The notes beneath the pieces are model-generated. The model made no database searches, was not told the origin of the DNA, and saw nothing but the letters and a program-made list of their open reading frames with translations. Position numbers and translations under genes: made by a program. Shown piece by piece: positions 281-63,937 of a stretch of DNA of 64,000 bases (position 1 is its first letter; every line of letters starts with the position of its first letter). The DNA is from a virus. Location: positions 1 through 64,000 of the IMG/VR virus record IMGVR_UViG_3300025030_000062; one strand, written 5' to 3'.

Positions 281-512
281 GCGGCTCAGATTCGCGGTGC
301 CTGAAGCTAGACAACGATGAGGCTAATTGTGGGCATAGCTAAAGGCTGCTGACTGAGCCAGGACCAAGTAGGAGGCCGCTGGCAGGGAGATAAGGTAGTA
401 GCGAAGGGTAAGGGCAAGGGTCGAGGCTAAAGGCGGCTCAGAGGGCATCCTTGGGCGGAGTTTTCGGAAGCTGAGAAGCGGCATTAGAAAATATTAAGAA
501 AGGAGAAATGAA

Positions 513-809
513 ATGCGGAGATACGAGACAAAGCCTGTTGAAATCCAGCAGCGAGAAGTTTTGGTTGAAACTATCTGTGATCTTTGTGGCGTTGTTGCTA
601 AAGGTAGTAATTGGGAAACTTCTAGCTACGAAACTGCTGAATCTGAAATAGAAGTTAAAGTTAGGTGTAAAACCGGTTTTGATTGCCCTGAAGGTGGTAA
701 TGGTGACGAAATCATTGTTGATATTTGTCCTAAGTGTTTTAAAGAGAAGCTTGTTCCGTTTCTTAAGTCTCAGGGTGCTGACATTAAAACTATCAATTAT
801 TATTGGTGA
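513..809 (+). CDS. Hypothetical protein, two CxxC motifs (putative Zn-binding)
   Basis: RBS AAGGAG; CDLC and CPKC. Confidence 0.7.
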   Translation: MRRYETKPVEIQQREVLVETICDLCGVVAKGSNWETSSYETAESEIEVKVRCKTGFDCPEGGNGDEIIVDICPKCFKEKLVPFLKSQGADIKTINYYW

Positions 810-820
810 GGTGAAATGAA

Positions 821-1084
821 ATGGGAATGTACGATGAGGTAAGTATTAGATGCCCTAATTGCAAACAATACTTTATATTCCAAAGCAAGTGCGGTCCTAA
901 ACGACTTGAAAGCTTTAGTTTAGACAACGCGCCTTTGTTTGTGATTGCCGATATAAACGAAGACGGCGAAAATGGAAAGCTTTGGTGTGAACATTGTGAT
1001 TCACAAATTAAAGTAAAAGTTCGCTTCACTGTGAAAGTTGAATCGCCTGATTGTCTGGAAGCAGAAGATTACAGGGAAGTTTAA
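821..1084 (+). CDS. Hypothetical Zn-ribbon protein
   Basis: CPNC and CEHC; tight spacing with neighbours. Confidence 0.7.
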   Translation: MGMYDEVSIRCPNCKQYFIFQSKCGPKRLESFSLDNAPLFVIADINEDGENGKLWCEHCDSQIKVKVRFTVKVESPDCLEAEDYREV

Positions 1085-1603
1085 ATGACCATCTTCTCAG
1101 CAACCGGCCATAGACCAAACAAGCTTTACGACGCCTACCCTGAACGTCATGGTTATGATTTGCTTGTTAGCTACGCTGAGTATTGCTTGAAACTGAATAA
1201 CGTTTTGATCATGGGAACTGGCATGGCTCTTGGTTGGGATATGGCTGTTGCTCAAGCTTGTTCTAATCTGCGAATTCCTTATGTTGCTTGCATTCCGTTC
1301 CAAGGCCAAGAATGCCAATGGTCGAAGCGCAGTCAGGAGTATTACAAGTTCTTAGTTTCGCTTGCGTGTCAAGTTGTTTATGTTTGTGATCCTGGTTATG
1401 CTCCTTGGAAGATGCAGAGAAGAAATGAATACATGGTTGATAATTCAACTAAGCAACTTGCGTTGTGGAACGGTACTAGCGGCGGTACTGGTAACTGTGT
1501 TAAGTATGCTAAGAGTAAGAAGGTTAAAGTTGTGAATTGTTGGGATGGTTATATTTTGGGATTGAGAGCGATGGGGATTGAATTTAAGGGAGGTAGAGAA
1601 TGA
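1085..1603 (+). CDS. SLOG-superfamily YspA/DUF1273-like nucleotide-binding protein
   Basis: Motifs TGHRP, GMALGWD, IPFQGQ, MQRRNEYMVD, WNGTSGGTGNCVKYA. Confidence 0.85.
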   Translation: MTIFSATGHRPNKLYDAYPERHGYDLLVSYAEYCLKLNNVLIMGTGMALGWDMAVAQACSNLRIPYVACIPFQGQECQWSKRSQEYYKFLVSLACQVVYVCDPGYAPWKMQRRNEYMVDNSTKQLALWNGTSGGTGNCVKYAKSKKVKVVNCWDGYILGLRAMGIEFKGGRE

Positions 1604-2694
1604 TTAAACAAGCACACATATACGCCGAAGTTCTTGAAGATTCAGCAAGAGAACAATTTGAAGATGCAATGAAGCAACCGTTTGTTGTGAAAGGTGCTCT
1701 CATGCCTGACGCGCACCAGGGCTACAGCTTGCCAATTGGCGCTGTTGTTGCAACTAAAGATGTAATAGTTCCTGCTTATATTGGCTACGACATTGGCTGC
1801 GGCGTTTGCGCTGTACCTACAACCTTTAAGCGTGCTGATGTTGAAGCAAATGCTAAAGCTATTTACGAAATGATTTACAAAGTTGTCCCTGTTGGATTTG
1901 CCCACAATCAGAAAGATTCGGTTTGGGATGTAACTTTGCCTTGTTCGCCTACTCTCGGTGATATCTTTGCAAAGAACGGACTGAAACAACTCTGTTCACT
2001 CGGCGGTGGAAATCATTTCATTGAGATTGGTTATGACGAAAGCGATGTGATCTGGATTACTGTCCATTCCGGTTCGCGTGGTATTGGTCATGCTGTTGCT
2101 ACTCACTACATGAAACTTGCTTCAGGCGACGGTAAAGCGCGTGAAGGTCATTTTGGGTTTGATGTTAGTTCGCGTGAAGGTCGGGATTACATTACTGATA
2201 TGAACTTTTGCTTGGCGTTTGCTTTGGAGAATAGGATTCAGATTGCAAATCGTGTTGCGCGAGCAATTAAAGAATTCTGTGACGGTTATTGTGAACCAGG
2301 AGAGCTTATCAACCGCAACCACAATCACGCTGAACTGAAAGATGGTCTTTGGATTCATCGCAAAGGTGCTACTCATGCTGAAGCGGGAATGATGGGCGTG
2401 ATCCCTGGTAATATGCGTGACGGTTCGTTTATCGTGCGTGGTAAAGGTAATCCTGACGCTCTTTGGTCTAGTTCGCATGGTGCAGGCCGTGTTAAAGGTC
2501 GGAAGCAAGCTCAGCGCGAAGTTAAGCTTGAGGATTTTGCTGAAACGATGATTGGCATAACTGCTAATGTGGGTAATAATACTTTGGATGAATCGCCTTT
2601 TGCTTATAAGAATATTTATGATGTGATGAAGCAGCAGAGCAATATGGTTGAGGTTATTCATCATGTTAAGCCTATTGTTAATTGTAAAGGATAA
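1600..2694 (+). CDS. rtcB: RtcB-family RNA ligase (2',3'-cyclic phosphate/5'-OH)
   Basis: MPDAH, DIGCG, GGGNHFIE, HSGSRG, HNH, HRKGAT, SHGAGR and DESPFAYK motifs all present. Confidence 0.95.
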   Translation: MIKQAHIYAEVLEDSAREQFEDAMKQPFVVKGALMPDAHQGYSLPIGAVVATKDVIVPAYIGYDIGCGVCAVPTTFKRADVEANAKAIYEMIYKVVPVGFAHNQKDSVWDVTLPCSPTLGDIFAKNGLKQLCSLGGGNHFIEIGYDESDVIWITVHSGSRGIGHAVATHYMKLASGDGKAREGHFGFDVSSREGRDYITDMNFCLAFALENRIQIANRVARAIKEFCDGYCEPGELINRNHNHAELKDGLWIHRKGATHAEAGMMGVIPGNMRDGSFIVRGKGNPDALWSSSHGAGRVKGRKQAQREVKLEDFAETMIGITANVGNNTLDESPFAYKNIYDVMKQQSNMVEVIHHVKPIVNCKG

Positions 2695-2703
2695 GGAGGC
2701 TAT

Positions 2704-4120: not shown

Positions 4121-4142
4121 TGTGGCTAAATAGGAGAGAAAG

Positions 4143-4433: not shown

Positions 4434-4756
4434 CTGTTATTAACATTAATAAAGCACCTAAAGACTGGCGAAATAACCCTGAATATGCTTACATTGGGCG
4501 AACCGGTTACGGGATTGAAGGTTACTTTGGTAATCCGATTGACCACAAAGCACCTTGCTTAATATGTGGGCAAATTCACGGTCTTCCTGGATTAACTTTA
4601 CTTTGCTACGAGACTTGGTTGCAGAACAAGCTTAAGTTTGATGCTGTGTTCAGCGAACGCTTCTATAGGGAACTAAGCGGCAAGATATTGGTTTGCTTCT
4701 GCAAACCTAAGCCTTGCCATGGTAATATTATATTGAAGTATTTGGAAAGGAGATGA
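4430..4756 (+). CDS. DUF4326-domain protein
   Basis: YIGR...FGNP...LSGKILVCFCKPKPCHG. Confidence 0.85.
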   Translation: MTVININKAPKDWRNNPEYAYIGRTGYGIEGYFGNPIDHKAPCLICGQIHGLPGLTLLCYETWLQNKLKFDAVFSERFYRELSGKILVCFCKPKPCHGNIILKYLERR

Positions 4757-4759
4757 TGA

Positions 4760-5937: not shown

Positions 5938-5940
5938 TCG

Positions 5941-5969: not shown

Positions 5970-6001
5970 AAATGAAACTTCAAGTTAAGGAGGTAAACAG
6001 C

Positions 6002-7071: not shown

Positions 7072-7473
7072 ATGAAACCGGAAGACTTCACCAAGTCAGG
7101 TAGCGAAAGCGGTGAGCAGCGTGCTTTGATGGCATGGGCTGCAATGAATGTGGGTAAATATCCTGAATTACGTTGGCTATTTCATATTCCTAATGGCGGT
7201 ATGCGAGGTAATGATGCAAGAACTAGAGCTGTTATGGGTAACGCACTTAAGGCTGAGGGGGTCAAAACTGGTATAGCTGACCTAATGCTTCCATACCCTA
7301 GAGGCGGTTATCATGGCTTATGGATTGAGATGAAAAAGAAGGGTGAAAAGGTGAAGAAAGGTTCTGACCAGGATAAGTTTGGTAAAGAAATGCTAGCTCA
7401 AGGTTATGGTTGGTGTGAGTGCGATAGCTACGAGAAAGCACGCGACGTACTAATTCAATATCTATCTCAATGA
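7072..7473 (+). CDS. VRR-NUC (PD-(D/E)XK) nuclease
   Basis: ESGEQ...LFHIPNGG...GVKTGIADL...LWIEMK...Q. Confidence 0.9.
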   Translation: MKPEDFTKSGSESGEQRALMAWAAMNVGKYPELRWLFHIPNGGMRGNDARTRAVMGNALKAEGVKTGIADLMLPYPRGGYHGLWIEMKKKGEKVKKGSDQDKFGKEMLAQGYGWCECDSYEKARDVLIQYLSQ

Positions 7474-10807: not shown

Positions 10808-11060
10808 CGTAGCTTTGCTTATAGTTGTATTAATGCTAACCGGCTGTGCTATATTAGGTCAGCGTGAATCTTCAGTACAATTGTCTAATGGCGAAATAGT
10901 AACTATACGATGCCCACATGACGGTAAGGTAGAGTTTAAGCAAGGTGAAACGCAGATTAAAGTTGATCTTCAAGGTAAGCCTGGGCCGATTGATTCATTG
11001 GTAGCTTTAATGTCTTTAGGGTTTGCGAGGCTGTTTACAACAACTGAGGTGGTTAAATGA
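10788..11060 (+). CDS. Lipoprotein (possible spanin-like)
   Basis: Signal peptide with lipobox LTGC; hydrophobic C-terminal segment; overlaps the endolysin end. Confidence 0.6.
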   Translation: MRFKLRNVALLIVVLMLTGCAILGQRESSVQLSNGEIVTIRCPHDGKVEFKQGETQIKVDLQGKPGPIDSLVALMSLGFARLFTTTEVVK

Positions 11061-11602
11061 TAAAGCTTTGTGAACAGCTTTGTTATGAGAGCTATTCTGA
11101 CAGCAAAAACTTTACAGAAGTAGGGGATTTGGCCTACGGTTTGTTCTACACACCTTACGGTAAAATTCTATGCATCAGAGGCTCCGAGAATGCCTTGAAT
11201 TGGCTTCGTAACGTCAGGGCCGTACCTTGGCGCACCTGCGGCGGTCATATTGCCCACAAGGGGTTCATACGAGCTTTCCAGGCGCTTTGTAGCGGCGGGA
11301 TGCCTACCGGAGCAGGCGCGTGTGACATCGTGACAGGACATAGCCTTGGCGGGGCCATAGCGACCCTCTACGCTGAGCAGGCCGGATGCAAGGTAGTCAC
11401 CTTTGGCTCGCCTAAAGTGTACTTCAGATTCGCTCCTGCGCCGGTTCTGGATCACATTCGAATAGTGCGTGACGACGATCCTGTTCCCTGGATTCCTGGT
11501 ATGTTCTACAGCCATAGAACTGAAGCTACGGTGAGGAAAGATGACGATCATCATTTGCTTCAGATTGAAGACCACTTTATGAAAGGATACTTGACCAAAT
11601 GA
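11057..11602 (+). CDS. Class-3 lipase (alpha/beta hydrolase)
   Basis: IRGS, HKGF, VTGHSLGGA nucleophile elbow, TFGSP, DPVP, C-terminal DH. Confidence 0.9.
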   Translation: MIKLCEQLCYESYSDSKNFTEVGDLAYGLFYTPYGKILCIRGSENALNWLRNVRAVPWRTCGGHIAHKGFIRAFQALCSGGMPTGAGACDIVTGHSLGGAIATLYAEQAGCKVVTFGSPKVYFRFAPAPVLDHIRIVRDDDPVPWIPGMFYSHRTEATVRKDDDHHLLQIEDHFMKGYLTK

Positions 11603-11795
11603 GAACTTTAGCTTTGCTGGTTTGGATAGTGATTCTGTTGACTAGTTCTATTGTGGGTAAATAAGAGGATAAATTAAATGGCAAGAGATAAGTGTATTTA
11701 CAATCGTCATATCGAATGTGTTAACTGTGAACTTTGTGACAGATACAAGAAATGATGAACTTATTAGGCTGTTGATTCTATTGTTGGGGTGAGTA

Positions 11796-12813: not shown

Positions 12814-12924
12814 AATGCCCACACCTTTACCTCAGTGGTTAATCGAACTGATTGAGCGTTGCAAGCGCGAAAAGGAGAATGGAAAGGTTAACTTAAACTA
12901 ATTTAAGGTTAAGGGTTGCTTATC

Positions 12925-15733: not shown

Positions 15734-15763
15734 TTGTGGGTAATGACTAAAAGGAGAAAATAA

Positions 15764-18596: not shown

Positions 18597-19912
18597 AATG
18601 GCTCAATCGGCTCTTTGAAACACGTTCGTCTGTTCAGCCGTCTTTGCTTGTCGGTGATCCTGCACTATCAGGTTACTTCGGCGGTTCACCTAATACTGCT
18701 TCTAGTCAGACCGTTAACGCTGAAACAGCCGTAAAGATTTCTACGGTGTCTGCTTGTGTTAATCGTAAAGCACTGACTCTTGCAATGCTTCCTTTGCACG
18801 TAATGCAGGAATTACCTGAAGGTGGTCATAAAGTAGCTAAGAATCATCGGCTTTATAAGCAAATGCATGATAAGCCTAATGATTGGCAAACGTCTTTTGA
18901 TTGGCGTTATATGGGCCAAGCTCATAAGATGTTGCGTGGTAACTTTTATAACTACATTCAGTCTACGCCTGGGCGTGGCATTAATCAGTTAATCCCTTTG
19001 CACCCTGATAGAGTGTTTCCGTTTGTGATCACTCCTGAAGGCGCAACGTACTTTATGTATGATAATTCGCCTACTCCGCCGCGTGGTTCAAAACTTTACT
19101 ATCAGTATTTCCCGGTAACAGGACAAAGCGAGATATTCACTGCGAAAGAGATTTTGCATATTAAAGGCTATAGCGACAATGGTATTGTGGGCAAAACTGT
19201 AGTCAAATTGATGGCTGAATCTGTCGGCCTTGCAATGGCAATGGAAGAGCAAGCAGCAAGGCTATTTACTAATGGTGCTCAAATAGCAAAAGTATTTAAG
19301 CACCCGGCTAAACTTGATGATCCTGCTTTTGATAGATTGAAAGCTCAGTTGGATAAATACACTGGTGTTGGAAATACTGGTAAAACTATTATCCTTGAAA
19401 ACGGCATGGACATAAGTAGTTTGAGTATGACTATGCAAGACAGTCAGTTTTTAGAGAATCGAAAGTTTCAGGTAGAAGATATTTGTAGCCATTTGGACGT
19501 ACCGATGATGCTGATTCATCGTTCCGGTGATAAGAATCAAACCTTTGCAAGCGCCGAAGTAGTAATGCAAATGTTTATTACTTTGAACATGCAACCGGAG
19601 TTTGAGAATTGGGAACAACGTCTGAAAATGGATTTGATGTACGACTCTGAAAAGGATTATTACTTCAACTTTGACTTTAATGCTTTGATGCGCGGCGACA
19701 TGGCTGCACAGGCTGCTTACAACAAGTCGAGGTTTGAAACTGCTTCTTGGTCGCCTAATGATATTCGCCGTAACAGTGGTGAAAGTCCTGACAATAGACC
19801 TGAATCCAATGAGGTATATGTTCCGTCAGGTATCTTCCCTGCGAGGTTGGCAGGTAGTCAGTTTAATAAAGGGCCTACAGAACCTAAAGAACCTTCCGCA
19901 ACAAAGGAGTGA
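18593..19912 (+). CDS. Portal protein, HK97 family
   Basis: KPNDWQTSFDW, LRGNFY, LIPLHPDRV, EILHIK, ILENGM, DSQFLENRKFQVEDI. Confidence 0.95.
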   Translation: MKWLNRLFETRSSVQPSLLVGDPALSGYFGGSPNTASSQTVNAETAVKISTVSACVNRKALTLAMLPLHVMQELPEGGHKVAKNHRLYKQMHDKPNDWQTSFDWRYMGQAHKMLRGNFYNYIQSTPGRGINQLIPLHPDRVFPFVITPEGATYFMYDNSPTPPRGSKLYYQYFPVTGQSEIFTAKEILHIKGYSDNGIVGKTVVKLMAESVGLAMAMEEQAARLFTNGAQIAKVFKHPAKLDDPAFDRLKAQLDKYTGVGNTGKTIILENGMDISSLSMTMQDSQFLENRKFQVEDICSHLDVPMMLIHRSGDKNQTFASAEVVMQMFITLNMQPEFENWEQRLKMDLMYDSEKDYYFNFDFNALMRGDMAAQAAYNKSRFETASWSPNDIRRNSGESPDNRPESNEVYVPSGIFPARLAGSQFNKGPTEPKEPSATKE

Positions 19913-45301: not shown

Positions 45302-48249
45302 TGCTAGTCATCTATTGTTCCCCCAACGGTATCGGGGATGGGCAACTGACCAGTCCTTGCTCATTTCTAGCCGCGAAGCAGATGGTTATCGACTCCGCTC
45401 ATGATGGCGACATCGTGGTACGTATGTTTGGGGGCGTCTACGAATTTGACGCCACGGTGACGTTTACCTCCGCCGACTCGGGAAAGAATGGTCATAAGGT
45501 ATATTGGGTGGCCCATGATCCAGCTAATCCACCGGTTATCTCCGGCGGCAGAGCTATAACTGGTTGGGAGCTGGATACTAGCGCAAGGGCGACTGGTAAG
45601 AATATCTGGAAGGCTCCAGTCCACGTGGACGCAGCCAAAAATTTTTGCGTCAATGACCACCAAGCGAAGATAACCAGCAGGTTTGTGCAGCCTCAATACA
45701 CTATACCTTACATCGATGGCTTACACGAATTCATCTTCACCATAAACGACGCCTCGTTCCCGGAACTGTCACGTCCCACAGATGCCTCGCTTTGTGTCTG
45801 GACCATGGTATGGAGCAGATCGACAGCAGCTCTCACAACATATAGCAGATCGGGAGACGTGACCACGTTCCGGGTGGACCGGGGCTTCTCCACCAATATT
45901 GCGGAGAACGTGGACGGGATAGACGAAAACGTCCCTCTTGATGCCGCCAACCGCACAGCCATAGAAAATGCTTTCGAGTTTCTTTCCGCTGACACCAAAG
46001 GGTATGGCTACATAGACACCACCGATCACGTGGCCTACTACGTACCTCTGGACGGCGAGGACATGACTCAGGCGACAGCCCATGCAGGTATCCGGGAGAA
46101 AGCCTTAACCTTGAATGGGGCAGTGGGTGTCTTCTTTGGCGGAGTGCAGTTTGCCCACACTAAATGGAATCCTTCGGCGTGGTTTGGGGGAGTGGGAAAC
46201 CCTACCGTGCCACTTGACGGGCCTCTCTGGGCGGAACTGTTCTTTGAGTTAGGTTACACGGCTGATCTTATGCCACCTGCTGTTGTGGAATGTAGATATT
46301 CGGAACATATTGGATTTCAGAACTGCCGTATTAAACACGGCGGCGGCGACGGTTTGGCAATTCTTGAGGGGTCCAAACACGTAGACCTGAGACATTCCTT
46401 AGTGACCGAGATATCTTCCAATGGCATTACTGTGGGAACACGCCTCAGCACCACCCCTCAGACATCTGACCAGGTTAGTTTCATAGCAATTGCGGATAAT
46501 ATCGTCACTAAAACCGGTTATGGCTATCTCGGTGCTCTCTCCATCTTCACAACTGTTATGGACCACGTGACTATACTTCGTAACGAGGTATCTTACGCAC
46601 CGTACAGTGGGATTGGATGGGGCCAGGGCGGGCCGGTCTGTTATACCAACAACATCGAAATAGCCTACAACAAGATACATCATATATTTGACCACCCCAC
46701 CATAGCTGACGGCGGGGCCATATATGGCAATAGTCAAACGGATGCTGTGGCTATCCATGACAATTACCTGTACGACAACTTTGCCATCTCGGAATATCAG
46801 TTCGGAAATGCGTTGTATTTCGATGAAGATGCATCTGGCGTCACCTACTACAACAACGTCATAGTAGAATCAGCCGCCATCGCAGCCATAGCGCCTGTGG
46901 GGGAGCACGTCTGGCTGGGCGGAAACAGCGCGGGGGTGATAGCGTACAACAACTATGCCTCGAACCATATGATCCTTAACTGGCCTCCGTGGGTAGGGGA
47001 AGTTCCGACCGCCGACGAGGCTATCCAATTAACGGGTATTGATCCCGCAAACTGGCCTGTGGCAGCACGCAACATTGCTCTTGCCTCCGGCCCGTCGCCA
47101 CTGCCGGAAGTCAGTTTGTTTATCCTTCCCGATTCCGCCACTACCCTAACCGTCCCTGCCACTTCGTTCACCGCCACGGACGATGTGGCCGTGACAGGCT
47201 ACTTGATAACCGAGAGCAGCACCCCGCCGCTAGTTACCGATCCGGGGTGGAGCGCGACTGCACCAACAGAGTTTACTTTCGCAGGTTACGGCAACCGCAC
47301 CGCATGGGCCTGGGTTAAGGATGGCGATGACAACGTGTCGGCGGGGGTGAGTGCGAGCACAACTATAACTTCATCGCCTTATACAATAGCTTTTGCTCAA
47401 CAACCAACAATTCAATATATCGTTGATGATATCGTAACATTAAGCTATGATACTATTACTTTAGGTGCTGAACAAGTTCAAAGTATTCAAACTCAAGTCA
47501 CAACAGCAACTCAAAGCTTTATTGGAACTTTAGCACAATCGCAAGCTAAACAAACTGAAGCTGTTGTAAGCTTGCAAAGTATTGCGGGTTATGTTGCCAC
47601 AACTCAAGCTAAACAATCCGTTACAATAGCAGGAACACCACAATTTAACGGAGTTATTGCCCACAATCAACCTATACAAATAACACAAGCTTCAACTCAA
47701 CAAACTATAACAGGCTCAGTTACAACAGTTCAACCAATAGCTTCACAAACAGCAAACGGTTCTTCAGCCGCTGAGCCGACATTAGCTTTCGGCCAACAGC
47801 CTGTTTTCAGCAACGGTATTATTTATTACGGCACTGAGGATTTATTTGCTGGTTTTGAAGGTACGATAATTCAACTTACGCCGGTTCAGCAGCAGATAGT
47901 TGAAGCAAGCTTAGGATTTACCGGAACCGTCGCTGAAAGCCAGAAATCAGCCGCTCAGAATGCCCTAGGGAGCCAAGTTTTTACCGGAGCCTTATCAGGG
48001 TATCAGCTAATTCAGGAGCAAGCGGCCTTGGCGCTGCCTGAAGCCGTAACGCAAGCGCAGCCGACTCAGCAGCAAGCAGTAATTAGCACTTTGAGCTTTA
48101 TGGGAGTTGTGAGCCAAGGTCAAGCGGTTCAATTGCAGCGGATTACCAGGATTGCTGAAGCTTTAGACTTGAAGATTAGCGTTCGTGATCCATTAACGTT
48201 GAAGATTTCTGTTCGTGATCCATTACAGCTTAAGATAACAGTGAATTAA
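45298..48249 (+). CDS. Large beta-helix glycoside-hydrolase-like protein (GH141-like) fused to Gln repeats
   Basis: GGVYEF...ADSG...PVISGG; NEVSYAPYSGIGWG; DGGAIY; LYFDE; C-terminal Gln repeats. Confidence 0.75.
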   Translation: MMLVIYCSPNGIGDGQLTSPCSFLAAKQMVIDSAHDGDIVVRMFGGVYEFDATVTFTSADSGKNGHKVYWVAHDPANPPVISGGRAITGWELDTSARATGKNIWKAPVHVDAAKNFCVNDHQAKITSRFVQPQYTIPYIDGLHEFIFTINDASFPELSRPTDASLCVWTMVWSRSTAALTTYSRSGDVTTFRVDRGFSTNIAENVDGIDENVPLDAANRTAIENAFEFLSADTKGYGYIDTTDHVAYYVPLDGEDMTQATAHAGIREKALTLNGAVGVFFGGVQFAHTKWNPSAWFGGVGNPTVPLDGPLWAELFFELGYTADLMPPAVVECRYSEHIGFQNCRIKHGGGDGLAILEGSKHVDLRHSLVTEISSNGITVGTRLSTTPQTSDQVSFIAIADNIVTKTGYGYLGALSIFTTVMDHVTILRNEVSYAPYSGIGWGQGGPVCYTNNIEIAYNKIHHIFDHPTIADGGAIYGNSQTDAVAIHDNYLYDNFAISEYQFGNALYFDEDASGVTYYNNVIVESAAIAAIAPVGEHVWLGGNSAGVIAYNNYASNHMILNWPPWVGEVPTADEAIQLTGIDPANWPVAARNIALASGPSPLPEVSLFILPDSATTLTVPATSFTATDDVAVTGYLITESSTPPLVTDPGWSATAPTEFTFAGYGNRTAWAWVKDGDDNVSAGVSASTTITSSPYTIAFAQQPTIQYIVDDIVTLSYDTITLGAEQVQSIQTQVTTATQSFIGTLAQSQAKQTEAVVSLQSIAGYVATTQAKQSVTIAGTPQFNGVIAHNQPIQITQASTQQTITGSVTTVQPIASQTANGSSAAEPTLAFGQQPVFSNGIIYYGTEDLFAGFEGTIIQLTPVQQQIVEASLGFTGTVAESQKSAAQNALGSQVFTGALSGYQLIQEQAALALPEAVTQAQPTQQQAVISTLSFMGVVSQGQAVQLQRITRIAEALDLKISVRDPLTLKISVRDPLQLKITVN

Positions 48250-48573: not shown

Positions 48574-50625
48574 CTAAAAGAACTTGATTTGTTGCTCACG
48601 TTTGTAAAACCCAATATCGAAAAGTATGCCGTTAGTAATGCTTATATACTTCTCGTAATCAACATCCGTAGGAAACTCTTCAGGTAAATCCATACAAGGT
48701 CTACCGCCTTCTGAATTTGCTACTTTGTTACCGTTAGAAATGTAGCTTATACAGCCTTGCTGATATTTAGCGTAATAATATCTTACAACCTTGCCTAAGT
48801 AAAAACCATCTTTCTCAGCACCGCCTTTTACGTTCATAAGTGAAATAAACCGTCTGATATCAGTACAACTTTTAATAGTTTCCTCTACAGGTATATTGTG
48901 GGTAAGCAAAGCTATTACTGCGTCAGAACAAACTAAATGTTGCGGGTTTTTAGATAACACGCTATTTAAAGCTGAACCGCGTTCGGCGTAGCGGCCTTTG
49001 ACCTTACAACCCATTCTATCGTCAAAGAATTCAGCCTTAGCATCACCTTTCTCCTTAATTGCGAGATAATTGTTAACATCAGCTGAATATATGGCTTTAT
49101 AGCGCGTTTCTTCTGTTTCAAAACCAGTTTCTTGTTCCCATTGTTTAATAACTTGAAGTAGTTCGTCATACTTTTCAACAGGACATTTCATTACTATTCC
49201 ATCTGTATTTCCAGACACTACAGGTATGCCTACAAGTTCGATCATTTCAATTAGCATTAATAACGAAAGTTGACCAGTAAGCGTTACTGTGATCATAAGC
49301 TTCGGTGAATAGAAACGCGAATATTTAGAACCTAAAAGACCGAATCCTGCATTGATTACAATTTTCTTGGAATCTGTTTCAACCTTAGCTTTCTTCAACT
49401 CAGCTTTTATAGTTTGGTTCTGTTCTATTATCTTTTTAAGCTTGCCGACTTTATCTTTAGCATCTAACCTTTGTCTAACAATCGAACTGTAAACTGTAAG
49501 AAAGGGAAGACCCATGTTTTCAGGAAACAATTTCAGATTCAGAACTATATTAGGATAAAAGCTTGCAGCGTCAACGTCAAGAAGCAACACTTCTTCAGTA
49601 GCCACATGAGATGCGGAACTTTCAGTGCTATGAAGACCGCCTATCGTTAAGTTGTAATTCGATATTCCTATTGATAATTGCAAATTATCAATGCTTTGTG
49701 GAATTAAAACTTTACCTGTATCTCTTACTACAAATTCGGCATCGCGTACAACTTCAAGCATATGCTGCAATACCGGAGTTTTGTATTTAATAAAGCCGGG
49801 AATGTCATATTTGAAAGTAGTTCCAGGTTCAACTGTTTGACGTTTAGGATTGCGTCCGGTGATTTTAGCAACTTCTGAACACACGACAGTTTCCGAAATC
49901 TGTGCGTCACCTTTCGATCTTAAATCCATTCCGTAATAAAGACTAAGTTCTGCTCTAAGTTCCAATTGTGGGCACAATTCTTTAAGCAAAAGCGAAGTAC
50001 ATTCAAGATCGTTTATGCAATAAAGGCGTACTGTATCACGCTGAGCTTGAGTTAGATAAGTGTTAGGATTATAAGGAAGGTCTTGCAATCTAGGTGCATG
50101 TAAACGTCCAGCGTATGTTTTCAAAGAAGCCGAAAGAGGGGCTACTTCAATAAGGTCGATATGGTTGATTTTGCCGCATTTGAATGAATATGCTTGTTCA
50201 ATATCTCTTATGCGCCAATTACCTTTAATTATAAAATCAGTTACGTTTTTAAGTGCCTCGTTATTAGCACCTTGGAGCGCAAGCCATAATAAGGGTAAGT
50301 CGAAATTAGCTGAGTTAAAACCTACATGACATCCATTGTGCAATAGCCAAAGCAACTTGTGTTTATCAAAATCTTTTTCAGGAGTTCGTTCGAAATAAAC
50401 AACTTGTTTAGTGGCGTAGCATTGAAAAGCTGCTAGGAAATACCCCGGATAAATTTCAAGGTCGTAAACAAACACGTTTCCTTTTGCTTCGTATAACTTT
50501 TCATCTGTAAATTCAGTAAAGTTTATTTCTTTACGCTCTAATGCAACTGTTAGTGTTTTACCTTGTCTTTTAATAGGAACAAGTTCTTCATCGGTAAAGA
50601 ACTTGTTAGGAGCTAATCGGTTCAT
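48574..50625 (-). CDS. Family-B DNA polymerase with 3'-5' exonuclease
   Basis: YDLEIY, GFNSANFD, YCIND; DAASFYPN, KIVINAGFG, NTDG. Confidence 0.9.
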   Translation of the reverse strand: MNRLAPNKFFTDEELVPIKRQGKTLTVALERKEINFTEFTDEKLYEAKGNVFVYDLEIYPGYFLAAFQCYATKQVVYFERTPEKDFDKHKLLWLLHNGCHVGFNSANFDLPLLWLALQGANNEALKNVTDFIIKGNWRIRDIEQAYSFKCGKINHIDLIEVAPLSASLKTYAGRLHAPRLQDLPYNPNTYLTQAQRDTVRLYCINDLECTSLLLKELCPQLELRAELSLYYGMDLRSKGDAQISETVVCSEVAKITGRNPKRQTVEPGTTFKYDIPGFIKYKTPVLQHMLEVVRDAEFVVRDTGKVLIPQSIDNLQLSIGISNYNLTIGGLHSTESSASHVATEEVLLLDVDAASFYPNIVLNLKLFPENMGLPFLTVYSSIVRQRLDAKDKVGKLKKIIEQNQTIKAELKKAKVETDSKKIVINAGFGLLGSKYSRFYSPKLMITVTLTGQLSLLMLIEMIELVGIPVVSGNTDGIVMKCPVEKYDELLQVIKQWEQETGFETEETRYKAIYSADVNNYLAIKEKGDAKAEFFDDRMGCKVKGRYAERGSALNSVLSKNPQHLVCSDAVIALLTHNIPVEETIKSCTDIRRFISLMNVKGGAEKDGFYLGKVVRYYYAKYQQGCISYISNGNKVANSEGGRPCMDLPEEFPTDVDYEKYISITNGILFDIGFYKREQQIKFF

Positions 50626-51415
50626 AATCAACTCCTTTATTGTCTCTATTTCCTTTGCTAACGTTGCAACCTAAGTGCGCAAGCTGAACGTTTTCCGCGC
50701 AGTGCAACCCGCCTTTAGATAAAGGAATTATATGGTCGATTGAAGGGGATAATGGATTTGGAAACTTAAAACTAACATCAACTTGTTTGCCACATAGTTT
50801 GCAGATAAATCCATCACGTTCGTAAATTTTATTGTGATTTATGTTTTCAACGAATTGAGCTTTACGTTTAGCTCTACGTTCAGCGGAATATTGCGCGAAC
50901 TTTAAAGCATTAGCGATTCTATAGTTCTTACCTTTAGTTTTAATCTTATCAGGATGTTTAGCACAAAATCTTTTTTCTTTAGCTTTAACTTTTTCAGGGT
51001 TTTCTTTATTCCATTTTACAATTCCGGCTTTTACTTTTTCTTTGTTTTCATCTCTATACTTTTTAGCTTGCGCTCTGGATTTTTCTGGATTTTCTTTTCT
51101 ATATTTTTTACTATATTCTGAAGCATAATTTGGATTCAGTTCTCTATAACGTTTGTTGCGTTCGTTATACTCTTCGAGTTTATTCAATCTACGTTCTCTT
51201 GCTTTGACTGAACATTCTTCTTTATTAAGTTCGTAATGTTTTTTACGGTATTGTTTTAATTTTTCTTTATTATTTTCTCTATGCTTCTTTGCTTTTTCTG
51301 CATTGCGAATTTTACATTTTTCACATACAGTTATTCCTGGCAAAGCTTCGTTTTTGCATCTGGTACATTTACGAAATACTAATTCAACTACTGGAATATC
51401 TTCGATTTTGAACAT
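50606..51415 (-). CDS. Free-standing HNH endonuclease
   Basis: RDGFICKLCG...DHIIPLSKGGLH...NVQLAHLGCNVSK; overlaps the polymerase start. Confidence 0.9.
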   Translation of the reverse strand: MFKIEDIPVVELVFRKCTRCKNEALPGITVCEKCKIRNAEKAKKHRENNKEKLKQYRKKHYELNKEECSVKARERRLNKLEEYNERNKRYRELNPNYASEYSKKYRKENPEKSRAQAKKYRDENKEKVKAGIVKWNKENPEKVKAKEKRFCAKHPDKIKTKGKNYRIANALKFAQYSAERRAKRKAQFVENINHNKIYERDGFICKLCGKQVDVSFKFPNPLSPSIDHIIPLSKGGLHCAENVQLAHLGCNVSKGNRDNKGVDYEPISS

Positions 51416-51740: not shown

Positions 51741-52784
51741 TTAAGCACGAACCCCCATTAAAGCCCCGCGCACCTTAATGCTATTTGCTTCACCAAAGAA
51801 CATAGCGTAGTTATTAGAATAGAAATCAACAACCTTAATACAACTTTCAATACGTTTCAATTGCTTGATGTTAAAGCAAGGACCGAAATGTATTCCAGGT
51901 ACATCGAACACAGCACCTTCGCCCTTGTCTCTATGTGATTGCAAGCAGTTCTCGCCAAAGTACACATTACCTGATTTGCTGAACGGCTCAATAGCAACTA
52001 GAGCTTTATAAAAGCCTATAGGTAGCGGTTGCGGATTACAAGCTACGTTTAAGATATTGTCAATGTTAGGATAAGCTTCTTCGTAAAGCTGCGTTTTGAC
52101 CCATGAGTTATCGTCGTAGAAAAAGGTAACAGAGTTGTTAGAAAATCCTAATTCCTTGAGCGATTTATCGGTGTCGAGCACAGCTGAGATGAATGACTTT
52201 GGCAACAAGAGGGTAGGCAGGTTCATACCGTGCCATACTTCCATGATTACAACAGCATCAGTGCTGATTAGAGAATTCTGACGCAACAATACAGAGCCAA
52301 GGATGACTTTCTTGGCGTCTTCTTTGCTGAAGGGTGCTGCGATATCCATTCCTGCCTTAATCGCGTCAGAAACGGCAGCACAGGGCGCGTCCGGTGCGAA
52401 TCCCGGCGACTCTTCCGGTAAACAAGGAATCGCGGCTGAGAACTTGTCTGCTTTAACAAAAAGCTTGCCAGGATCAACCTGAGTCATGGCAAACTCGGTA
52501 GGACAGTTGCGAATAGCCTCAAGCAGATGCATGATATGCGGCCTAGAGTTCAAATCAACATCAGTCCTAATGCCAGCTGAGATGACGTTGTTTGAAGCTG
52601 TCAATCGTCCGTTATTAAAGCAACAATGTTGTTGTTGGGGCGTACCTGATTTATCAAAGACAACGGAGATAAATTCAAGTTCCTCAAACAGCTTGACAGA
52701 GCGGTTAGCTTTCGGCTTTTGAGTCTTAGTTTGCTTGACTGGCTTAGGCTGCTTAATTGATTTGGAGATAACTCTAGCTGGCAT
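51741..52784 (-). CDS. DNA sliding clamp (beta-clamp-like)
   Basis: 347 aa; LTASN, ISTDA, YPNIDNIL, FNIKQL, RGALMGVR; next to the polymerase. Confidence 0.75.
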   Translation of the reverse strand: MPARVISKSIKQPKPVKQTKTQKPKANRSVKLFEELEFISVVFDKSGTPQQQHCCFNNGRLTASNNVISAGIRTDVDLNSRPHIMHLLEAIRNCPTEFAMTQVDPGKLFVKADKFSAAIPCLPEESPGFAPDAPCAAVSDAIKAGMDIAAPFSKEDAKKVILGSVLLRQNSLISTDAVVIMEVWHGMNLPTLLLPKSFISAVLDTDKSLKELGFSNNSVTFFYDDNSWVKTQLYEEAYPNIDNILNVACNPQPLPIGFYKALVAIEPFSKSGNVYFGENCLQSHRDKGEGAVFDVPGIHFGPCFNIKQLKRIESCIKVVDFYSNNYAMFFGEANSIKVRGALMGVRA

Positions 52785-52793: not shown

Positions 52794-53726
52794 TCACAGG
52801 TTGCGTAGCAAATCGGTTTTGTCAATCAAACGCCGTAACAAGATAGCAATATTGCTTCCACATAAACAACCGCGATCAACTTGTTCAACATGTGTAGTAT
52901 TACTTACTCTGAATCTATCACCTCTCCAAGTGAACCTAATTGCGTCAGGTTCACTTACATCTATATCTTTAATTTGCTCAGGATAAGGAAGTGACGTAAT
53001 AACAAGTTCAAGAAGTTCTTCGTTTTTCATATAAAATCTCCTTCAATCAAAGCTTCAGTTGCGATACAAACAGGGCAATCACAGTTCTTGTTGCTTACGC
53101 CAAGTCCGTTACATTCGCAATCGCGGTCTGTTATGCGTTCTAGGGCGATTTTGTAGATAGAGAGTTTAGCAGCCATCGATTTATACTCTTCAACTGTTCT
53201 AGCGGTCATTGAGCGCATAGGAGGTTGACCGTTGATTTCTAATGTTTCTTCTAAATCCATTGCCTAACCTCCTTCGGCCTATCAGACACATCTTCGCCAT
53301 TAGCAAGCTTATGTTTGTAAATCTTATACAAGCTGTCGCTTACTACCCATTTGGGGATCATCGGACCTAGTTCGCAATCCATACATTGTTCAGCAAGATA
53401 TTGCCCACAATTTGTACAGTTCATTCTAAACATCCTCCGCAAAGGTCACAAACTTTGTTCTCAGTGTCGCACATCTCAGCATCTTCGTCGTGTAACTCAG
53501 GATCAACCATTTCAACAACCTTGTTAAGCTCAGCGGCAGCTGCTTCGTATTTGGCTTTAGCAAGGTCGTAAGCAGCTTGAGCTTCAGTTTTCAGGAAAGC
53601 GTGCGCTTCGGTCCAGGTGTTGAACCATTTACACCACTTAGTATTAATAGCTCCAAATCCATAATTAAATTCTTCCTTAACTATTTCAGGCGTGTAAGTC
53701 CCAAGCATTGCGCCGTACTTTATCAT
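52794..53726 (-). CDS. Four small hypothetical ORFs (52794-53030, 53027-53260, ~53251-53424, 53421-53726)
   Basis: Coupled start/stop codons and RBS motifs. Confidence 0.55.
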
Positions 53727-57804: not shown

Positions 57805-59517
57805 TTAATCCCACTCAACACCAGTAACTTCATAATACTGACCGGTTTTCATTACCTTGATTCGCTTTGGCACACGTAACTGAGATACGTAAAGTAAAGC
57901 TTCGTCAGTGCTAGTAGGCGGTTCTGATGCATGGCGTTGACGCCACCAGTTTTTGAATCTTGTTAGAGCAAATCCCTTGTGTTGTGGGCATTGCCACTCT
58001 GAAAACTTTTGCAGTCCTGAGTAATACGAAACTTTGATACTAGGTTCTGAGCCAATCTTAGTATGCTTGTGGTAGATAACCCTTGTTACTTCTTTGATTT
58101 CTTCTGTTGGAACTTCACCGGCAAGCACAGGTGCTGTTCCTGATGTACTAAGTAACTTTGTTTTGAATATAAACTCTGCGCCACAACCTTCATCAGAACG
58201 ATATGGTTTACCGCCGCAATAACGAGCTGAAGGATGGTTGTATATTCCACATATAACACCATCATGAACAGCTTCGCATGTTTTGATTGGCATTTCACCA
58301 ACCTTATCACCTTTCTTGCGAGGTAAACGTGGATCATTTATTGGACCCAACCGCTTAGTGTTCGCTGCGAAGTCTAAAATACGACAATTTCGCTTAGTAT
58401 ATTCGAATCCTGCTATGTACTGTTCAGGATTATTGCAATCATAAGGTCTAGTTCCCCTTCCGTATTTCTGAACATGGTTGCCGGTTGAAACGGTAGGGTA
58501 AAGATCAATAATCATGTCAATTGGAGGGTGATCAAACCCTTTAACAAGAACCTTGTAGCCAACCAATGCTTTAATCTTAGCCGTTTTAAATGCTTCGAGC
58601 CGTTCCTTACGTTGTTCCTTGGTGATCTTCGAATGAACAAATGTAGCAGATATGCCTAAGCTTTGAAGCATTTCGGCAATGTGTTCGCAATGTTCTACAC
58701 CTGAAGCGAAAACTAACCAGCAATGTCTGTTATCTTCATAGCCAATCTGAACCGACTCGCGCAGTGCTGCAAAGGTAATTTCTTGTTTATCAACAGCTTT
58801 TTGCAATGTACCTTGAGCGAAATCACCTTTGCTCATGCCCACATTAGAAACATCCAACTCAAAGGATGTGGGGCGCGCTATCGGCGGCGACAAGTATCCT
58901 TCTGCAATAAGCCTGTTGAACGGGTGAAGCTGTGTAATGTCAAAGCAAACGTCATCAAATAGCCTGTTATCGCCCTCAGTGAGCAATCCTTGACCCATTC
59001 TGTAGATCGTCGCGCTAAGACCAACTACGCGAAGGTTTGGATTAATTTCGTTCATCTGACTAACTATTTGACGATAACCTGTTTCTTCATCAGGAGAAAC
59101 ACCCTGAACTTCGTCTATGATGATAATGTGACGAAACCCGAACGCTGGAATATTGTTTCTAACGCTACCTAGCGAACCAAAGATAATAGGATAAGCTATT
59201 TCCTTTTTATCTAATCCTGCGCAATAAACACCAGCAGGAGCATTAGGCCAAAGCTGAAGAAGTTTCTTATGGTTCTGTTCAACTAGCTCTTGACTATCTA
59301 CCAATTGCATGATTCGCATATGTGGAAAGTAGCTAAGCAATAACTGGATTAGACCAGCTATTACAATCGCTTTGCCACTACCTGTGGGCATGGCTGCGAT
59401 TGTGTTTCCTGTCTCATTTTCATAGAGATAATTCAAGAAAGCATAAATGCATTCAATTTGATAGTCACGCGGAACTAACGCTGGTTTTTCAAATGAAGTT
59501 CTTTCTGAAGCTGACAT
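57805..59517 (-). CDS. SF2 DNA helicase (RadD/YejH-like)
   Basis: PRDYQ, MPTGSGKA, IIDEVQ, GLSAT, GFDHP, QKYGRGTR. Confidence 0.9.
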   Translation of the reverse strand: MSASERTSFEKPALVPRDYQIECIYAFLNYLYENETGNTIAAMPTGSGKAIVIAGLIQLLLSYFPHMRIMQLVDSQELVEQNHKKLLQLWPNAPAGVYCAGLDKKEIAYPIIFGSLGSVRNNIPAFGFRHIIIIDEVQGVSPDEETGYRQIVSQMNEINPNLRVVGLSATIYRMGQGLLTEGDNRLFDDVCFDITQLHPFNRLIAEGYLSPPIARPTSFELDVSNVGMSKGDFAQGTLQKAVDKQEITFAALRESVQIGYEDNRHCWLVFASGVEHCEHIAEMLQSLGISATFVHSKITKEQRKERLEAFKTAKIKALVGYKVLVKGFDHPPIDMIIDLYPTVSTGNHVQKYGRGTRPYDCNNPEQYIAGFEYTKRNCRILDFAANTKRLGPINDPRLPRKKGDKVGEMPIKTCEAVHDGVICGIYNHPSARYCGGKPYRSDEGCGAEFIFKTKLLSTSGTAPVLAGEVPTEEIKEVTRVIYHKHTKIGSEPSIKVSYYSGLQKFSEWQCPQHKGFALTRFKNWWRQRHASEPPTSTDEALLYVSQLRVPKRIKVMKTGQYYEVTGVEWD

Positions 59518-61239: not shown

Positions 61240-61302
61240 TTTGTTTCTCCTTTACGTGAATAGGTGCGGGGTTATATGCATTAGTTGTCATTCGGTTACT
61301 CC

Positions 61303-62310
61303 TTAAATGATAGATTCCCACATACTACAAGCATTAGGTATAGCTTCCTTCGGTACTATAGCATTCCATTGTTCACAGAACCAATTAGCATCTTCGACAG
61401 GTCTGCATTTGATACAACTACGACAATTGACATCAGCAGGTTCGTTAAAGAAGCAAGGATTACGATGATCACAATAAGTACATTCAAAGAACGCAGGACT
61501 CATGCTAATACCACTCGGCGGCGTTTGAGAAAAGATTATCATCCCCGCTTTGCGTTCCAAGGCCTCACCTAGCGCGTGATCTAGCTTAAGCACTTCGATA
61601 TGCAATTCATCATCGTTCTTGTTCACAGCCATGTAAATACCGTAGTTCAAGTTCAGCTTATACCCGTAAATTGACATTTGCCGATAGTGCTGAGCTTTCT
61701 TTACCTGCATTCCCTTAGCTACAAGTTCATCAAAGTTCTTACCTTTCTTGCCAACTCCGTTAGTCTTAAATTCGTCCAAGAAAACAACATCTTCGCTAAT
61801 ACCGTATTGTGCGGGTAACGTACACATTCCATCAATAGAGCCGCCGAAATGACCTTGACAGGCTGATATACGAATTTGCCGCTTCCCTTTGTCTAGGATT
61901 ACTCCGCGTTTCTCAGCTTCAACTTCGTGAACAGCAATACCTTCAACAAGATCAGCTTCAATGGCTTGGTTAGGGTTAGCATAAAAATATTCGTCACTAG
62001 GAGCATGATAAAAAAGCACCTTATCAAACATCGTAACCTTGCAACCAATCCCCTCAAGGTAACTCACAAAGCGAGGTTCTTCAAAGTGACCGCGCTGAAA
62101 CAGCCGATATTGCCTACCGTCATGAACAGTGTGCTTAATCCAGCGAAAGCTGTACCATAAATGGCGGCAACAGTCGTGACCGATTAAGCTAGCTCCAAGA
62201 TGCGAACGCGGCCCTTCGTTGTAGCGTTTGACACAATAATCATCAATATCAGACTTAATGCGCCGTGCTAGTGCCGGTAGTGCGCCTGGGGATTCGAGGT
62301 TGAGGGTCAT
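61303..62310 (-). CDS. PD-(D/E)XK exonuclease (Cas4/RecB-like)
   Basis: RSHLGAS...C.RHLWY...FQRGH..E; GSIDG, DEFKT, QMSIY, CTYCDH...C. Confidence 0.85.
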   Translation of the reverse strand: MTLNLESPGALPALARRIKSDIDDYCVKRYNEGPRSHLGASLIGHDCCRHLWYSFRWIKHTVHDGRQYRLFQRGHFEEPRFVSYLEGIGCKVTMFDKVLFYHAPSDEYFYANPNQAIEADLVEGIAVHEVEAEKRGVILDKGKRQIRISACQGHFGGSIDGMCTLPAQYGISEDVVFLDEFKTNGVGKKGKNFDELVAKGMQVKKAQHYRQMSIYGYKLNLNYGIYMAVNKNDDELHIEVLKLDHALGEALERKAGMIIFSQTPPSGISMSPAFFECTYCDHRNPCFFNEPADVNCRSCIKCRPVEDANWFCEQWNAIVPKEAIPNACSMWESII

Positions 62311-62628
62311 TTACTCACCGGTTCAATAAAGCGAACGTCTGTAGTTTCAATATCGGTGACTATATACTGCTTACCTTCCATTTGACTAACATCAGTCCAG
62401 CGAATGTTAAGCGCATAAATAACAACACCATGCTTCGCAGCAATGTTCTCTAAACAAGTAGCAAGTTCCTCGTTGATGCTGTTCATCCTTTACTCCTTTC
62501 CAGCCCAACCAAAGCAAGCGCAATTGGACCGTTCTCGTAGCTATCAACAAGCTCGTTCAGCTTGGTAACACATTCGTTAATTGCAGCTTGATCTTCAGGA
62601 GACATCATTGAAATAGCGCCTTTGAGCA

Positions 62629-63937
62629 TTAGGATTTGGTTTTGCATTTGCATTCTCCGTTTTCCATGTTGTTAGCCAATTGTCGTAACGCCGCTATTAT
62701 GTTAGCAGCGTAGCCTGAATTCGTGCGTTCGTTAGTATTCGTGTCATATAAAGCAACACAAATAAGATTTGAATCTTTGCATTTGTAAAGATCAAGAGCC
62801 AGTTCTTTACCTTTAAGGTTGATCACGTTTAACCCTCCTCAATAGGAACCCAACCGTCGCCAATACTGTAAGCAAGGTCAAGTTCTTCTATGGTATGACC
62901 TCTAGGAATCTTTACTTTGATGCTAAATCCTTCACACTGAATATAAACTTCTTCAGTCCACATTTCAGATTGATGATAGGTAGGCGTTTGCATCCTCAAC
63001 CCTCCTTCAAAAGTTTAGCCAACTCAGTCTCAGCAATCTTAACTTCAGCCTTGTTAGCTTGACGAATCAGAACAGTTTCACCTTTGTTAATAGCGTGTCT
63101 GATAAACTGCCAATCGCGCCTACCGCCTTTGGTATCGTAGAATTCACCGATACGCGAGCCGCTTTCCTGGTAGTATTTCGGGCCTAGGTAGAAGAGTTCT
63201 ATTGACATATCAAACCCCGCTTAAGCATTTCAGCTTCAAACACTTTAACCATTTCGGCGCAATATTCAACGCCGAATCTCCCAGCTTTGCTTGCTGCTCC
63301 ATCAGGTAAGAAAGAGTTTCGAGCTTCAACTAAGCGTATATCACCTAGCTCGGATATCTTAACTTTATTGATCTTCATTCAGCTTTCCTTTCTTGCAACT
63401 TCACAACCGCTAACACTTCATCGTCGCTGACATAATAGCAAGCCGAAATGTGTTCACCTAGTTGAATACCGTCTTTAACATATACGTTATAAATTGAGCC
63501 ATCAGCATCGCGCTTAACTATCATGAATTCGGCTTCCATCGCATTGCCTCCTTATAATTGTGGGTAAATTAATGATCAGGTTCGGCGTTTTCATCAATTC
63601 GAGCACCTTCAGGCAAAGCGATATCATCAAATTGCTCAGCAAACGCACAAGCTTCCTGATAAGTTTCAGCAGTAGGACAAGCACCGTCATGTTCATCCAT
63701 CCACATGACACAAAGACCATCTAAAGCATTCTGCAAAGGGCAATCATTACAACCAACTTCGTCATTACCGGCAAATTCAGGATTTTCAACTTTCATTCGG
63801 TTTCTCCTTTGGGGGTTAAAGTAGCCTACTGGAATTGGTTCAAGGTCAGGAGCGCCACATTCTCTGCACTCAGTAGCATCAGCGTCGTTATCAGCTTCAC
63901 ACCATTCGCAAACTTTAAAGTCAATTTCCGGTTGCAT
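62629..63937 (-). CDS. Small hypothetical ORFs (62629-62826, 62996-63208, 63569-63937 and shorter ones)
   Basis: ORF track; RBS motifs. Confidence 0.5.

Follow-up and report, generated by a model that had tools for sequence, protein, structure and literature searches.

The first 64,000 nucleotides of the IMG/VR virus record IMGVR_UViG_3300025030_000062 (hereafter the window) come from an uncultured phage in which one short word, the 8-mer TGTGGGYA, recurs along the genome. The word is strongly enriched, is under selection at the DNA level, keeps its positions in related phages and is evenly spaced on each strand taken separately. It is also independent of the host, and co-occurs with a primase-helicase in which an archaeo-eukaryotic-type (AEP) primase-polymerase (prim-pol) domain, a helix-bundle domain and a DUF3987 ATPase domain are fused. 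Because the word tracks this type of primase, and because the homologous primases of NrS-1 and pRN1 read 5'-GTG(G/A), TGTGGGYA is probably an extended template recognition site of the phage's own primase-helicase, as judged from sequence comparison. The whole record is 94,899 bp long with a G+C content of 41.5%, the window being its first part. The same DNA is present in groundwater metagenome runs, and no close cultured phage was matched in a megablast search with the phage sequence.

We take the 8-mer as the core of the word because the flanking positions carry little information (a weak preference for A at -2, W, i.e. A or T, at -1 and A at +9) while the T and A at its ends are fixed. In the whole record, T precedes every GTGGGCA, A comes after every TGTGGGC, and the base 5' of GTG in the word is always T. 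TGTGGGYA occurs 47 times in the record (27 copies on the + strand and 20 on the - strand, with about 2.5 expected), and 30 of these copies lie in the window (19 on + and 11 on -). A first-pass annotation, made from the letters of the window alone, had listed 25 copies of the longer form WTGTGGGYA, all of which are exact in position and strand. Its rough expectation of about two such copies also agrees with dinucleotide shuffles (1.71±1.37, maximum 6). Five copies in the window (12816-, 24304+, 43531+, 46152- and 59383+) were overlooked there because they lack the W prefix. The sites in the window are listed below, with G003 and G005 denoting genomes compared with this phage (G000).

328..335, + strand: TGTGGGCA site, intergenic
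1899..1906, - strand: TGTGGGCA site, antisense within the RtcB gene
2568..2575, + strand: TGTGGGTA site, within the RtcB gene
4565..4572, + strand: TGTGGGCA site
7149..7156, + strand: TGTGGGTA site, within the VRR-NUC gene
10911..10918, - strand: TGTGGGCA site
11251..11258, - strand: TGTGGGCA site
11652..11659, + strand: TGTGGGTA site, intergenic
12816..12823, - strand: TGTGGGCA site without W prefix, newly found, conserved in G005
15735..15742, + strand: TGTGGGTA site, intergenic, past the terminase large-subunit (TerL) gene
19186..19193, + strand: TGTGGGCA site, portal gene, present in 6/6 relatives with C/T toggling at position 7
21791..21798, + strand: TGTGGGCA site, major capsid gene, present in 5/6 relatives
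24304..24311, + strand: TGTGGGCA site, newly found, conserved in G005
24409..24416, - strand: TGTGGGCA site, divergent pair with the site at 24304
26673..26680, + strand: TGTGGGTA site
31614..31621, + strand: TGTGGGCA site, tape-measure gene
33802..33809, - strand: TGTGGGCA site
37861..37868, + strand: TGTGGGCA site
40848..40855, - strand: TGTGGGTA site
42487..42494, + strand: TGTGGGTA site
43531..43538, + strand: TGTGGGYA site, newly found
46152..46159, - strand: TGTGGGYA site, newly found
47658..47665, - strand: TGTGGGCA site
48897..48904, + strand: TGTGGGTA site, antisense within the PolA gene
49967..49974, + strand: TGTGGGCA site, antisense within the PolA gene
53402..53409, - strand: TGTGGGCA site, conserved in G003
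57983..57990, + strand: TGTGGGCA site, antisense within the helicase gene
58836..58843, - strand: TGTGGGCA site, sense within the helicase gene
59383..59390, + strand: TGTGGGYA site, newly found
63559..63566, + strand: TGTGGGTA site, intergenic

When the k-mers of the whole record were ranked without prior choice against an order-3 Markov model, TGTGGGCA headed the list of 8-mers (33 copies vs 1.08 expected, z ~31), far ahead of the Shine-Dalgarno word, and TGTGGGTA occurs 14 times vs 1.39 expected. One-off variants of TGTGGGYA mostly do not exceed expectation, apart from those with T for C at position 7 or A for G at position 5. The most frequent substitution at position 5 produces TGTGAGCA, the GTGA form, which has 10 copies and is the second most over-represented single-base variant overall. 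When the genes were recoded in 300 synonymous-codon shuffles that kept both the proteins and the codon pool, the 33 in-gene copies stood against 5.7±2.1 (maximum 11), so that the enrichment survives a shuffle in which the first-pass annotation had allowed that it might vanish. The copies occur in all three sense and all three antisense frames, and 14 of the 47 lie outside gene calls, although the calls are crude.

It is also evident that the positions of the sites are conserved. Across six related IMG/VR contigs, 23 of 28 alignable instances of a site of this phage are retained, compared with a background of 29% (P = 1e-8) that was taken empirically from 8-mer windows within the same alignments. 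In four distant relatives, 7 of 9 sites are kept vs a background of 7-15%. Kept sites in relatives vary only between C and T at position 7. In the portal gene (19186) and the capsid gene (21791), the sites are read as xxT-GTG-GGY-Axx and keep their synonymous third positions in nearly all relatives, and thus conservation at synonymous sites, on which the first-pass annotation had made its proposal depend, is found in both genes. Since the codon-shuffle and the synonymous-site tests both came out in favour, the signal is real. The synonymous-codon shuffle, the distribution over frames and the conservation at synonymous sites together rule out a coding artefact. TGTGGGYA is therefore under DNA-level selection, and the dispersed DNA-level signal proposed earlier is borne out by the codon shuffle, the six-frame distribution and the conservation of positions.

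The copies had been described as spread fairly evenly, and their pooled spacing is indeed more even than random (coefficient of variation, CV, 0.67, P = 0.002; largest gap 5.1 kb, P = 0.005). Within single strands the CV is 0.46 for the + strand (P < 2e-4) and 0.60 for the - strand (P = 0.013), and neighbouring sites on a strand are about 3.5-5 kb apart in this phage and 1.7-6 kb apart in relatives, long gaps being few. Shuffling the strand labels with the positions fixed destroys the per-strand regularity (P = 0.0007 in this phage), and the strand effect has the same direction in 16 of 16 genomes tested, some of them related to one another (Fisher 5e-26). Because the strand-label shuffle removes the per-strand regularity, the word is read in a strand-aware manner. 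Same-strand gaps longer than 6 kb are found on the - strand at 1899-10911, 12816-24409, 24409-33802, 33802-40848 and 87281-93387, and on the + strand at 31614-37861 and 49967-57983. All seven hold at least one near-cognate on the strand concerned (TGTGAGCA, TGTGGGGA or TGTGGGAA), and 11 of 16 minus-strand variants, counted by hand, fall in the 45% of the genome that the gaps cover, a weak excess. Near-cognate words in long gaps may thus act as weaker sites, which is suggestive only.

The organisation of the spacing strand by strand, rather than in the pooled sites, disfavours an orientation-blind binder of duplex DNA. Such a binder would be a small phage protein acting in compaction, transcription control or protection, with the HTH-like protein encoded at record 72308-72616 as the candidate. 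Homologues of the small open reading frame (ORF) in question, which heads the primase operon, are encoded by Halfdan, RcTitan, Eidolon, G003 and G006, the corresponding genes of phage 73 and Loki carry a DNA-binding annotation, and the 14 of 47 sites that are intergenic would suit a role of this kind. However, the ORF has no detectable Pfam domain, no homologue of it was detected in Queuovirinae, Bhz55 or S144, and the sites bear no constant relationship to gene starts and occur in both orientations with respect to transcription. A homology comparison of the ORF with phage 73 gave no match. The DUF7303-like, RHH and HTH proteins that the first-pass annotation had put forward as binders are likewise not common to all word-bearing phages, and we regard a small duplex-binding protein as a very unlikely reader.

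To which organisms the word belongs can be seen from its distribution. The nearest cultured phages that share replication genes with this phage are Pseudomonas phage 73 and Escherichia phage Halfdan (both 54% G+C, about 43 kb), and TGTGGGCA is the top 8-mer in each of them (19 copies vs 0.26 expected in phage 73, 20 vs 0.20 in Halfdan). It is also the top 8-mer in Rhodobacter phage RcTitan (17 copies) and in Sphingomonas phage Eidolon, where its 24 copies are strikingly periodic. In Acinetobacter phage Loki (TGTGGGCA 13 vs 0.95; TGTGGGYA 17) and Achromobacter phage Axy19 (TGTGGGCA 11 vs 0.59; TGTGGGYA 11, plus TGTGGGCG), the word is likewise strongly enriched but is outranked by words that overlap it within the same motif. 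Enrichment of the word is also seen in uncultured relatives of this phage with 38-42% G+C, and it is absent from two distant capsid relatives with 60-66% G+C. The word is thus carried by phages of Alpha-, Beta- and Gammaproteobacteria (E. coli, Pseudomonas, Acinetobacter, Achromobacter, Rhodobacter and Sphingomonas), and spans Septimatrevirus, Lokivirus, Titanvirus, Queuovirinae, Loughboroughvirus and the uncultured 95-kb groundwater clade of this phage. E. coli K-12 shows no enrichment (91 copies in 4.64 Mb vs 104 for a reversed control word). Because the word is the top 8-mer in phages of several hosts and is at chance level in K-12, it belongs to the phage lineage and not to the host. No account of the word in phages turned up in the literature, where the sole match from a phage was an incidental string in a gene table of KL1.

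These results bear directly on the idea that the sites are variant DnaA boxes, or sites of another host factor (host Chi or an uptake sequence), gathered by the phage. The likeness that had suggested DnaA is that TTRCCCACA coincides with TTATCCACA at seven of nine bases and departs from it mainly at position 4. However, position 4 is here always C, TTWTNCACA is matched by none of the 47 copies, two canonical TTATCCACA boxes are present elsewhere in the record (92870 and 92882), and the sites are dispersed and even, organised by strand and independent of the host rather than clustered at an origin. Phages from six genera of hosts share the word. The likeness to DnaA boxes is thus coincidental. 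A host protein as reader, which the first-pass annotation had left open, fares no better given the range of proteobacterial classes and the chance level in K-12, and the top 8-mer shared by phage 73 and Halfdan, together with the K-12 frequency, rules out a host Chi, an uptake sequence and a DnaA site. We consider any host-factor explanation extremely improbable.

The two DnaA boxes form a direct repeat, the only such boxes of the record, within a gene-poor stretch of about 1 kb (record 92600-93600). About 500 bp from them, two copies of the word form an inverted pair (TTGCCCACAA at 93386, TTGTGGGCAA at 93433) separated by 37 bp. This stretch may be a replication origin. Near the contig end, at record 94040-94700, lies a non-coding region of dense short direct repeats (TTGCCGGTCATCCGC twice in tandem, and many GCTCGTT, CCATTAC and TTGCCGTC units), which could be iterons or a packaging region.

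Related words are found in other phages. The sister word TGTGGTYA is the top 8-mer in the Queuovirinae examined (NP1, GottfriedDienst, JenP1, pVco-14 and VspDsh_1) and in the Beaumontvirinae phage Bhz55; it occurs there as TGTGGTCA or TGTGGTTA, with 34-45 copies per 47-66 kb, evenly spaced per strand (in VspDsh_1, one TGTGGTYA about every 1.8-2.0 kb per strand). The primase of these phages is only 25-36% identical. Salmonella phage S144 has TTGTGGGT (32 copies vs 1.7 expected), and Rhizobium phage RHph_N17 a weaker CTGTGGTC (14 vs 1.1). In a tree of the primase N-terminal domain, the GTYA-type phages fall into a single clade (support 99/99), the GGYA-type phages make up an unresolved backbone that contains a clade of G000, G003 and G006, and S144 and RHph_N17 sit on long uncertain branches. 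The word therefore varies with the primase clade. G006 (IMGVR_UViG_3300020045_001610) has 22 copies of the word and in addition a second family, GGCTACGG, GGCGACGG and GCCGTCGC, with 15-18 copies each vs 1-2 expected.

To which gene the word is linked was explored by comparing gene contents. The genes common to this phage, phage 73 and Halfdan are those for PolA, a clamp-like factor, an SF2 helicase, a Cas4-type exonuclease, a DUF669 single-stranded DNA-binding protein (SSB), MazG, VRR-NUC and the large primase-helicase, all of them functions in replication or repair. TerL and the capsid protein of this phage have no counterpart in phage 73 or Halfdan, which removes structural and packaging proteins from the candidate readers. 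The genes of this module that lie in the window are the following.

7072..7473, + strand: VRR-NUC nuclease, found in TGTGGGYA-type phages and RHph_N17, none in Queuovirinae, Bhz55 or S144
48574..50631, - strand: family A DNA polymerase (PolA), shared replication module
51741..52784, - strand: sliding-clamp-like processivity factor
57805..59517, - strand: SF2 helicase (ResIII, Helicase_C), also found in phages without the word
61303..62310, - strand: Cas4-domain exonuclease

In a panel of 33 records, four of which are word-bearing relatives that are fragments without the primase region, a TGTGG-type word is present in 17 of 17 records with the AEP, helix-bundle and DUF3987 primase (weakly in RHph_N17) and in 0 of 10 phages without this fusion. 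This favours the first-pass annotation's option of a site for a phage replication or primase protein. Wherever Pfam finds the C-terminal domain in the scanned primases of word-bearing phages, they are all of this fused type. The word is absent from six phages whose AEP and helix-bundle primases carry D5_N/DUF5906 instead (LP-030-2, Sasha, Carvaje, BcepB1A, yong1 and phiadh), and from phiHSIC and Ssp-JY40, which share only the C-terminal half of the primase and lack this AEP domain. PolA and the clamp are ruled out as readers by S144, which has the word and no match to either. The methyltransferase encoded in the primase operon (record 75158-76006) is rejected because it has no counterpart in cultured word-bearing phages. 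Salmonella phage Sasha (KX987158.1), with its D5-type primase and no TGTGG word, carries about 14 copies of a longer repeat around GCACGAGCGGAA.

The SF2 helicase and the Cas4-type nuclease deserve separate consideration, as the word could be a Chi-like signal owned by the phage and read by these two proteins in end resection or recombination-dependent replication. Chi-type signals are asymmetric G-rich 5- to 8-mers read on one strand, and such a signal would suit the strand-specific spacing; E. coli Chi (GCTGGTGG) is, like TGTGGGYA, a short asymmetric over-represented word, and the helicase and Cas4 genes are adjacent and conserved within the module. However, Mcat18, XX1924 and Ssp-JY40 have the helicase and the Cas4 nuclease, no such primase and no word (Mcat18 and Ssp-JY40 also have SSB, and Ssp-JY40 also Sak4), and Axy19 has the word with no Cas4 homologue detected. 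Moreover, Chi follows host RecBCD/AddAB, whereas the distribution of the present word goes with a lineage of phage primases irrespective of host; TGTGGGCA, which is at chance in K-12, also differs from E. coli Chi. The helicase and the nuclease are accordingly disfavoured as readers, and a phage-owned Chi is quite unlikely.

The nucleases of this phage raise another idea, that the sites mark places where one strand of the virion DNA is nicked in a programmed way, as happens in T5, phiKMV or tf-type phages, in which the consensus sites of nicks are short strand-specific words. This phage does encode VRR-NUC and multiple HNH nucleases. No nuclease is common to all word-bearing phages, however, VRR-NUC being missing in Queuovirinae, Bhz55 and S144, and no report of nicks in these genera turned up, in searches that were not aimed at nicks. 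Programmed nicking at the word is therefore highly improbable.

The primase-helicase itself has 863 aa and is encoded 12 kb past the window (record 76055-78646, + strand). Its residues 17-270 match the staphylococcal primase-helicase 7OLA (E = 8e-28) and the NrS-1 prim-pol 6A9W (E = 1.5e-11), and the catalytic motifs D-x-D (here D-M-D) and S-G-x-G-x-H (here S-G-F-G-L-H) are aligned. Further products of its operon (record 72308-78646) include a 424-aa protein that weakly matches metallophosphoesterases and the methyltransferase mentioned above, which is of the N6/N4 DNA type; neither has a counterpart in phage 73 or Halfdan.

Among homologues of this enzyme, pRN1 ORF904 has 5'-GTG as its recognition site. 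According to PMC8718748, the NrS-1 prim-pol reads 5'-GTGG or 5'-GTGA on the template, plus a separate 8-nt site 5'-TTTGGTTA; its recognition site is bound by the helix-bundle domain, as is that of ORF904, and the primer starts at the first base upstream. The word T-GTGG-GYA contains GTGG and, at position 5, tolerates the change to GTGA. That the base immediately 5' of GTG in the word never varies also fits initiation at the first base upstream as described there for NrS-1 (PMC8718748). Unlike in NrS-1 and pRN1, the site here is a sharply defined 8-mer, 20- to 100-fold enriched, conserved in position and evenly spaced per strand. The helicase partner also differs, being DUF3987 and not D5/SF3, and the D5-type phages tested have no such word.

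We infer from these comparisons that the word is read by the primase and that this results in priming. Once the duplex is unwound, the helix-bundle domain would read 5'-T-GTGG-GYA-3' on the single-stranded template, and primer synthesis would begin at or just 5' of the invariant T, so that primers would start with A. Each strand would need its own row of sites at fragment-length intervals, and selection would keep a site every 3.5-5 kb or so per strand, a distance comparable to the length of lagging-strand fragments. Host DNA contains the 8-mer only rarely, so that the site would also restrict the primase largely to phage DNA.

A functional parallel is the gp4 primase of T7, which needs a specific template sequence, with a cryptic 3' base, to start lagging-strand primers; its sites are built on a 5'-GTC core (GGGTC, TGGTC and GTGTC). 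As proposed here, it is a phage primase-helicase with template-specific primer starts. Unlike the present sites, those of T7 are 3-5 nt long and need no genome-wide enrichment or spacing, and the T7 enzyme is of the Toprim/DnaG type rather than AEP. Sequence-specific priming is thus already known, with short sites that need no design of the genome; new here is a conserved 8-mer laid evenly along each strand.

Several observations weigh against the primase reading. The Pfam model NrS1-1_pol-like_HBD matches this primase at residues 244-274 with 23.4 bits, below the cut-off of 27.9 bits; its scores are above the cut-off in the orthologues of phage 73 (34.8), NP1 (31.0) and Bhz55 (28.8). The sites lie on both strands along the whole genome with no switch at a presumed origin, and priming at the word would thus require forks running both ways or re-priming on both strands. 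The lytic D5-type phages Sasha, Carvaje and BcepB1A have a helix-bundle primase and no word; a helix-bundle primase alone therefore does not predict the word, and the extended specificity would be confined to DUF3987-type enzymes. Moreover, the link between word and primase is a correlation within a co-inherited replication module, in which related phages share labels, so that independent contrasts are few.

The same dependence on DUF3987 leaves room for another role of this protein, namely that the word is a loading or assembly site for its DUF3987 helicase part, giving dispersed, oriented entry points of the replisome (many small origins) rather than primer starts. The word tracks the DUF3987-type fusion and not AEP plus helix-bundle alone, related staphylococcal primase-helicases are called self-loading helicases in the title of their report, an oriented loading site would also give strand-wise spacing, and the inverted word pair lies about 500 bp from the two DnaA boxes. 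On the other side, phiHSIC and Ssp-JY40, which share only the C-terminal half, have no word, the GTGG core and its GTGA variant match the template reading of homologous helix-bundle primases, and some 20-27 origins per strand would be unusual. We consider helicase loading unlikely, and template recognition by the primase remains the reading that we prefer.

A more far-reaching form of the primase reading can be put forward only tentatively, and we are inclined to doubt it. The primase-helicase of this phage supergroup might be able to start chains only at the 8-mer, so that lagging-strand starts would be written into the genome in an even row on each strand. The word would then act as a self-address, keeping the replisome away from host DNA, in which a copy is met only about once per 100 kb per strand, and the switch from G to T at position 6 between clades would reflect co-evolution of enzyme and code.

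If the primase does read the word, the mechanics of replication visibly shape the sequence of a phage genome, synonymous sites included, and fragment length and replisome specificity could be tested by simple oligonucleotide assays. The word could also serve as a marker that assigns metagenomic contigs to a replication type, whatever the host. GGYA vs GTYA is also a natural pair for mapping how a helix-bundle domain reads DNA.

Some other features of the phage are worth recording. At least five homing-endonuclease-like genes (NUMOD3, HNH and HNH_3) are present, in the window at 13078-14010 and 50606-51415 and in the record at 65202-65954, 69330-69809 and 82675-83214; one adjoins the TerL gene and one adjoins PolA. 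A tRNA-Thr(CGT) predicted by ARAGORN at window 9669-9762 is unusually long (94 nt). A YpsA/SLOG-family protein adjoins the RtcB RNA ligase (window 1085-2694) and a weak Macro-domain protein is encoded elsewhere (56942-57391), for which functions in RNA repair or anti-defence are possible.

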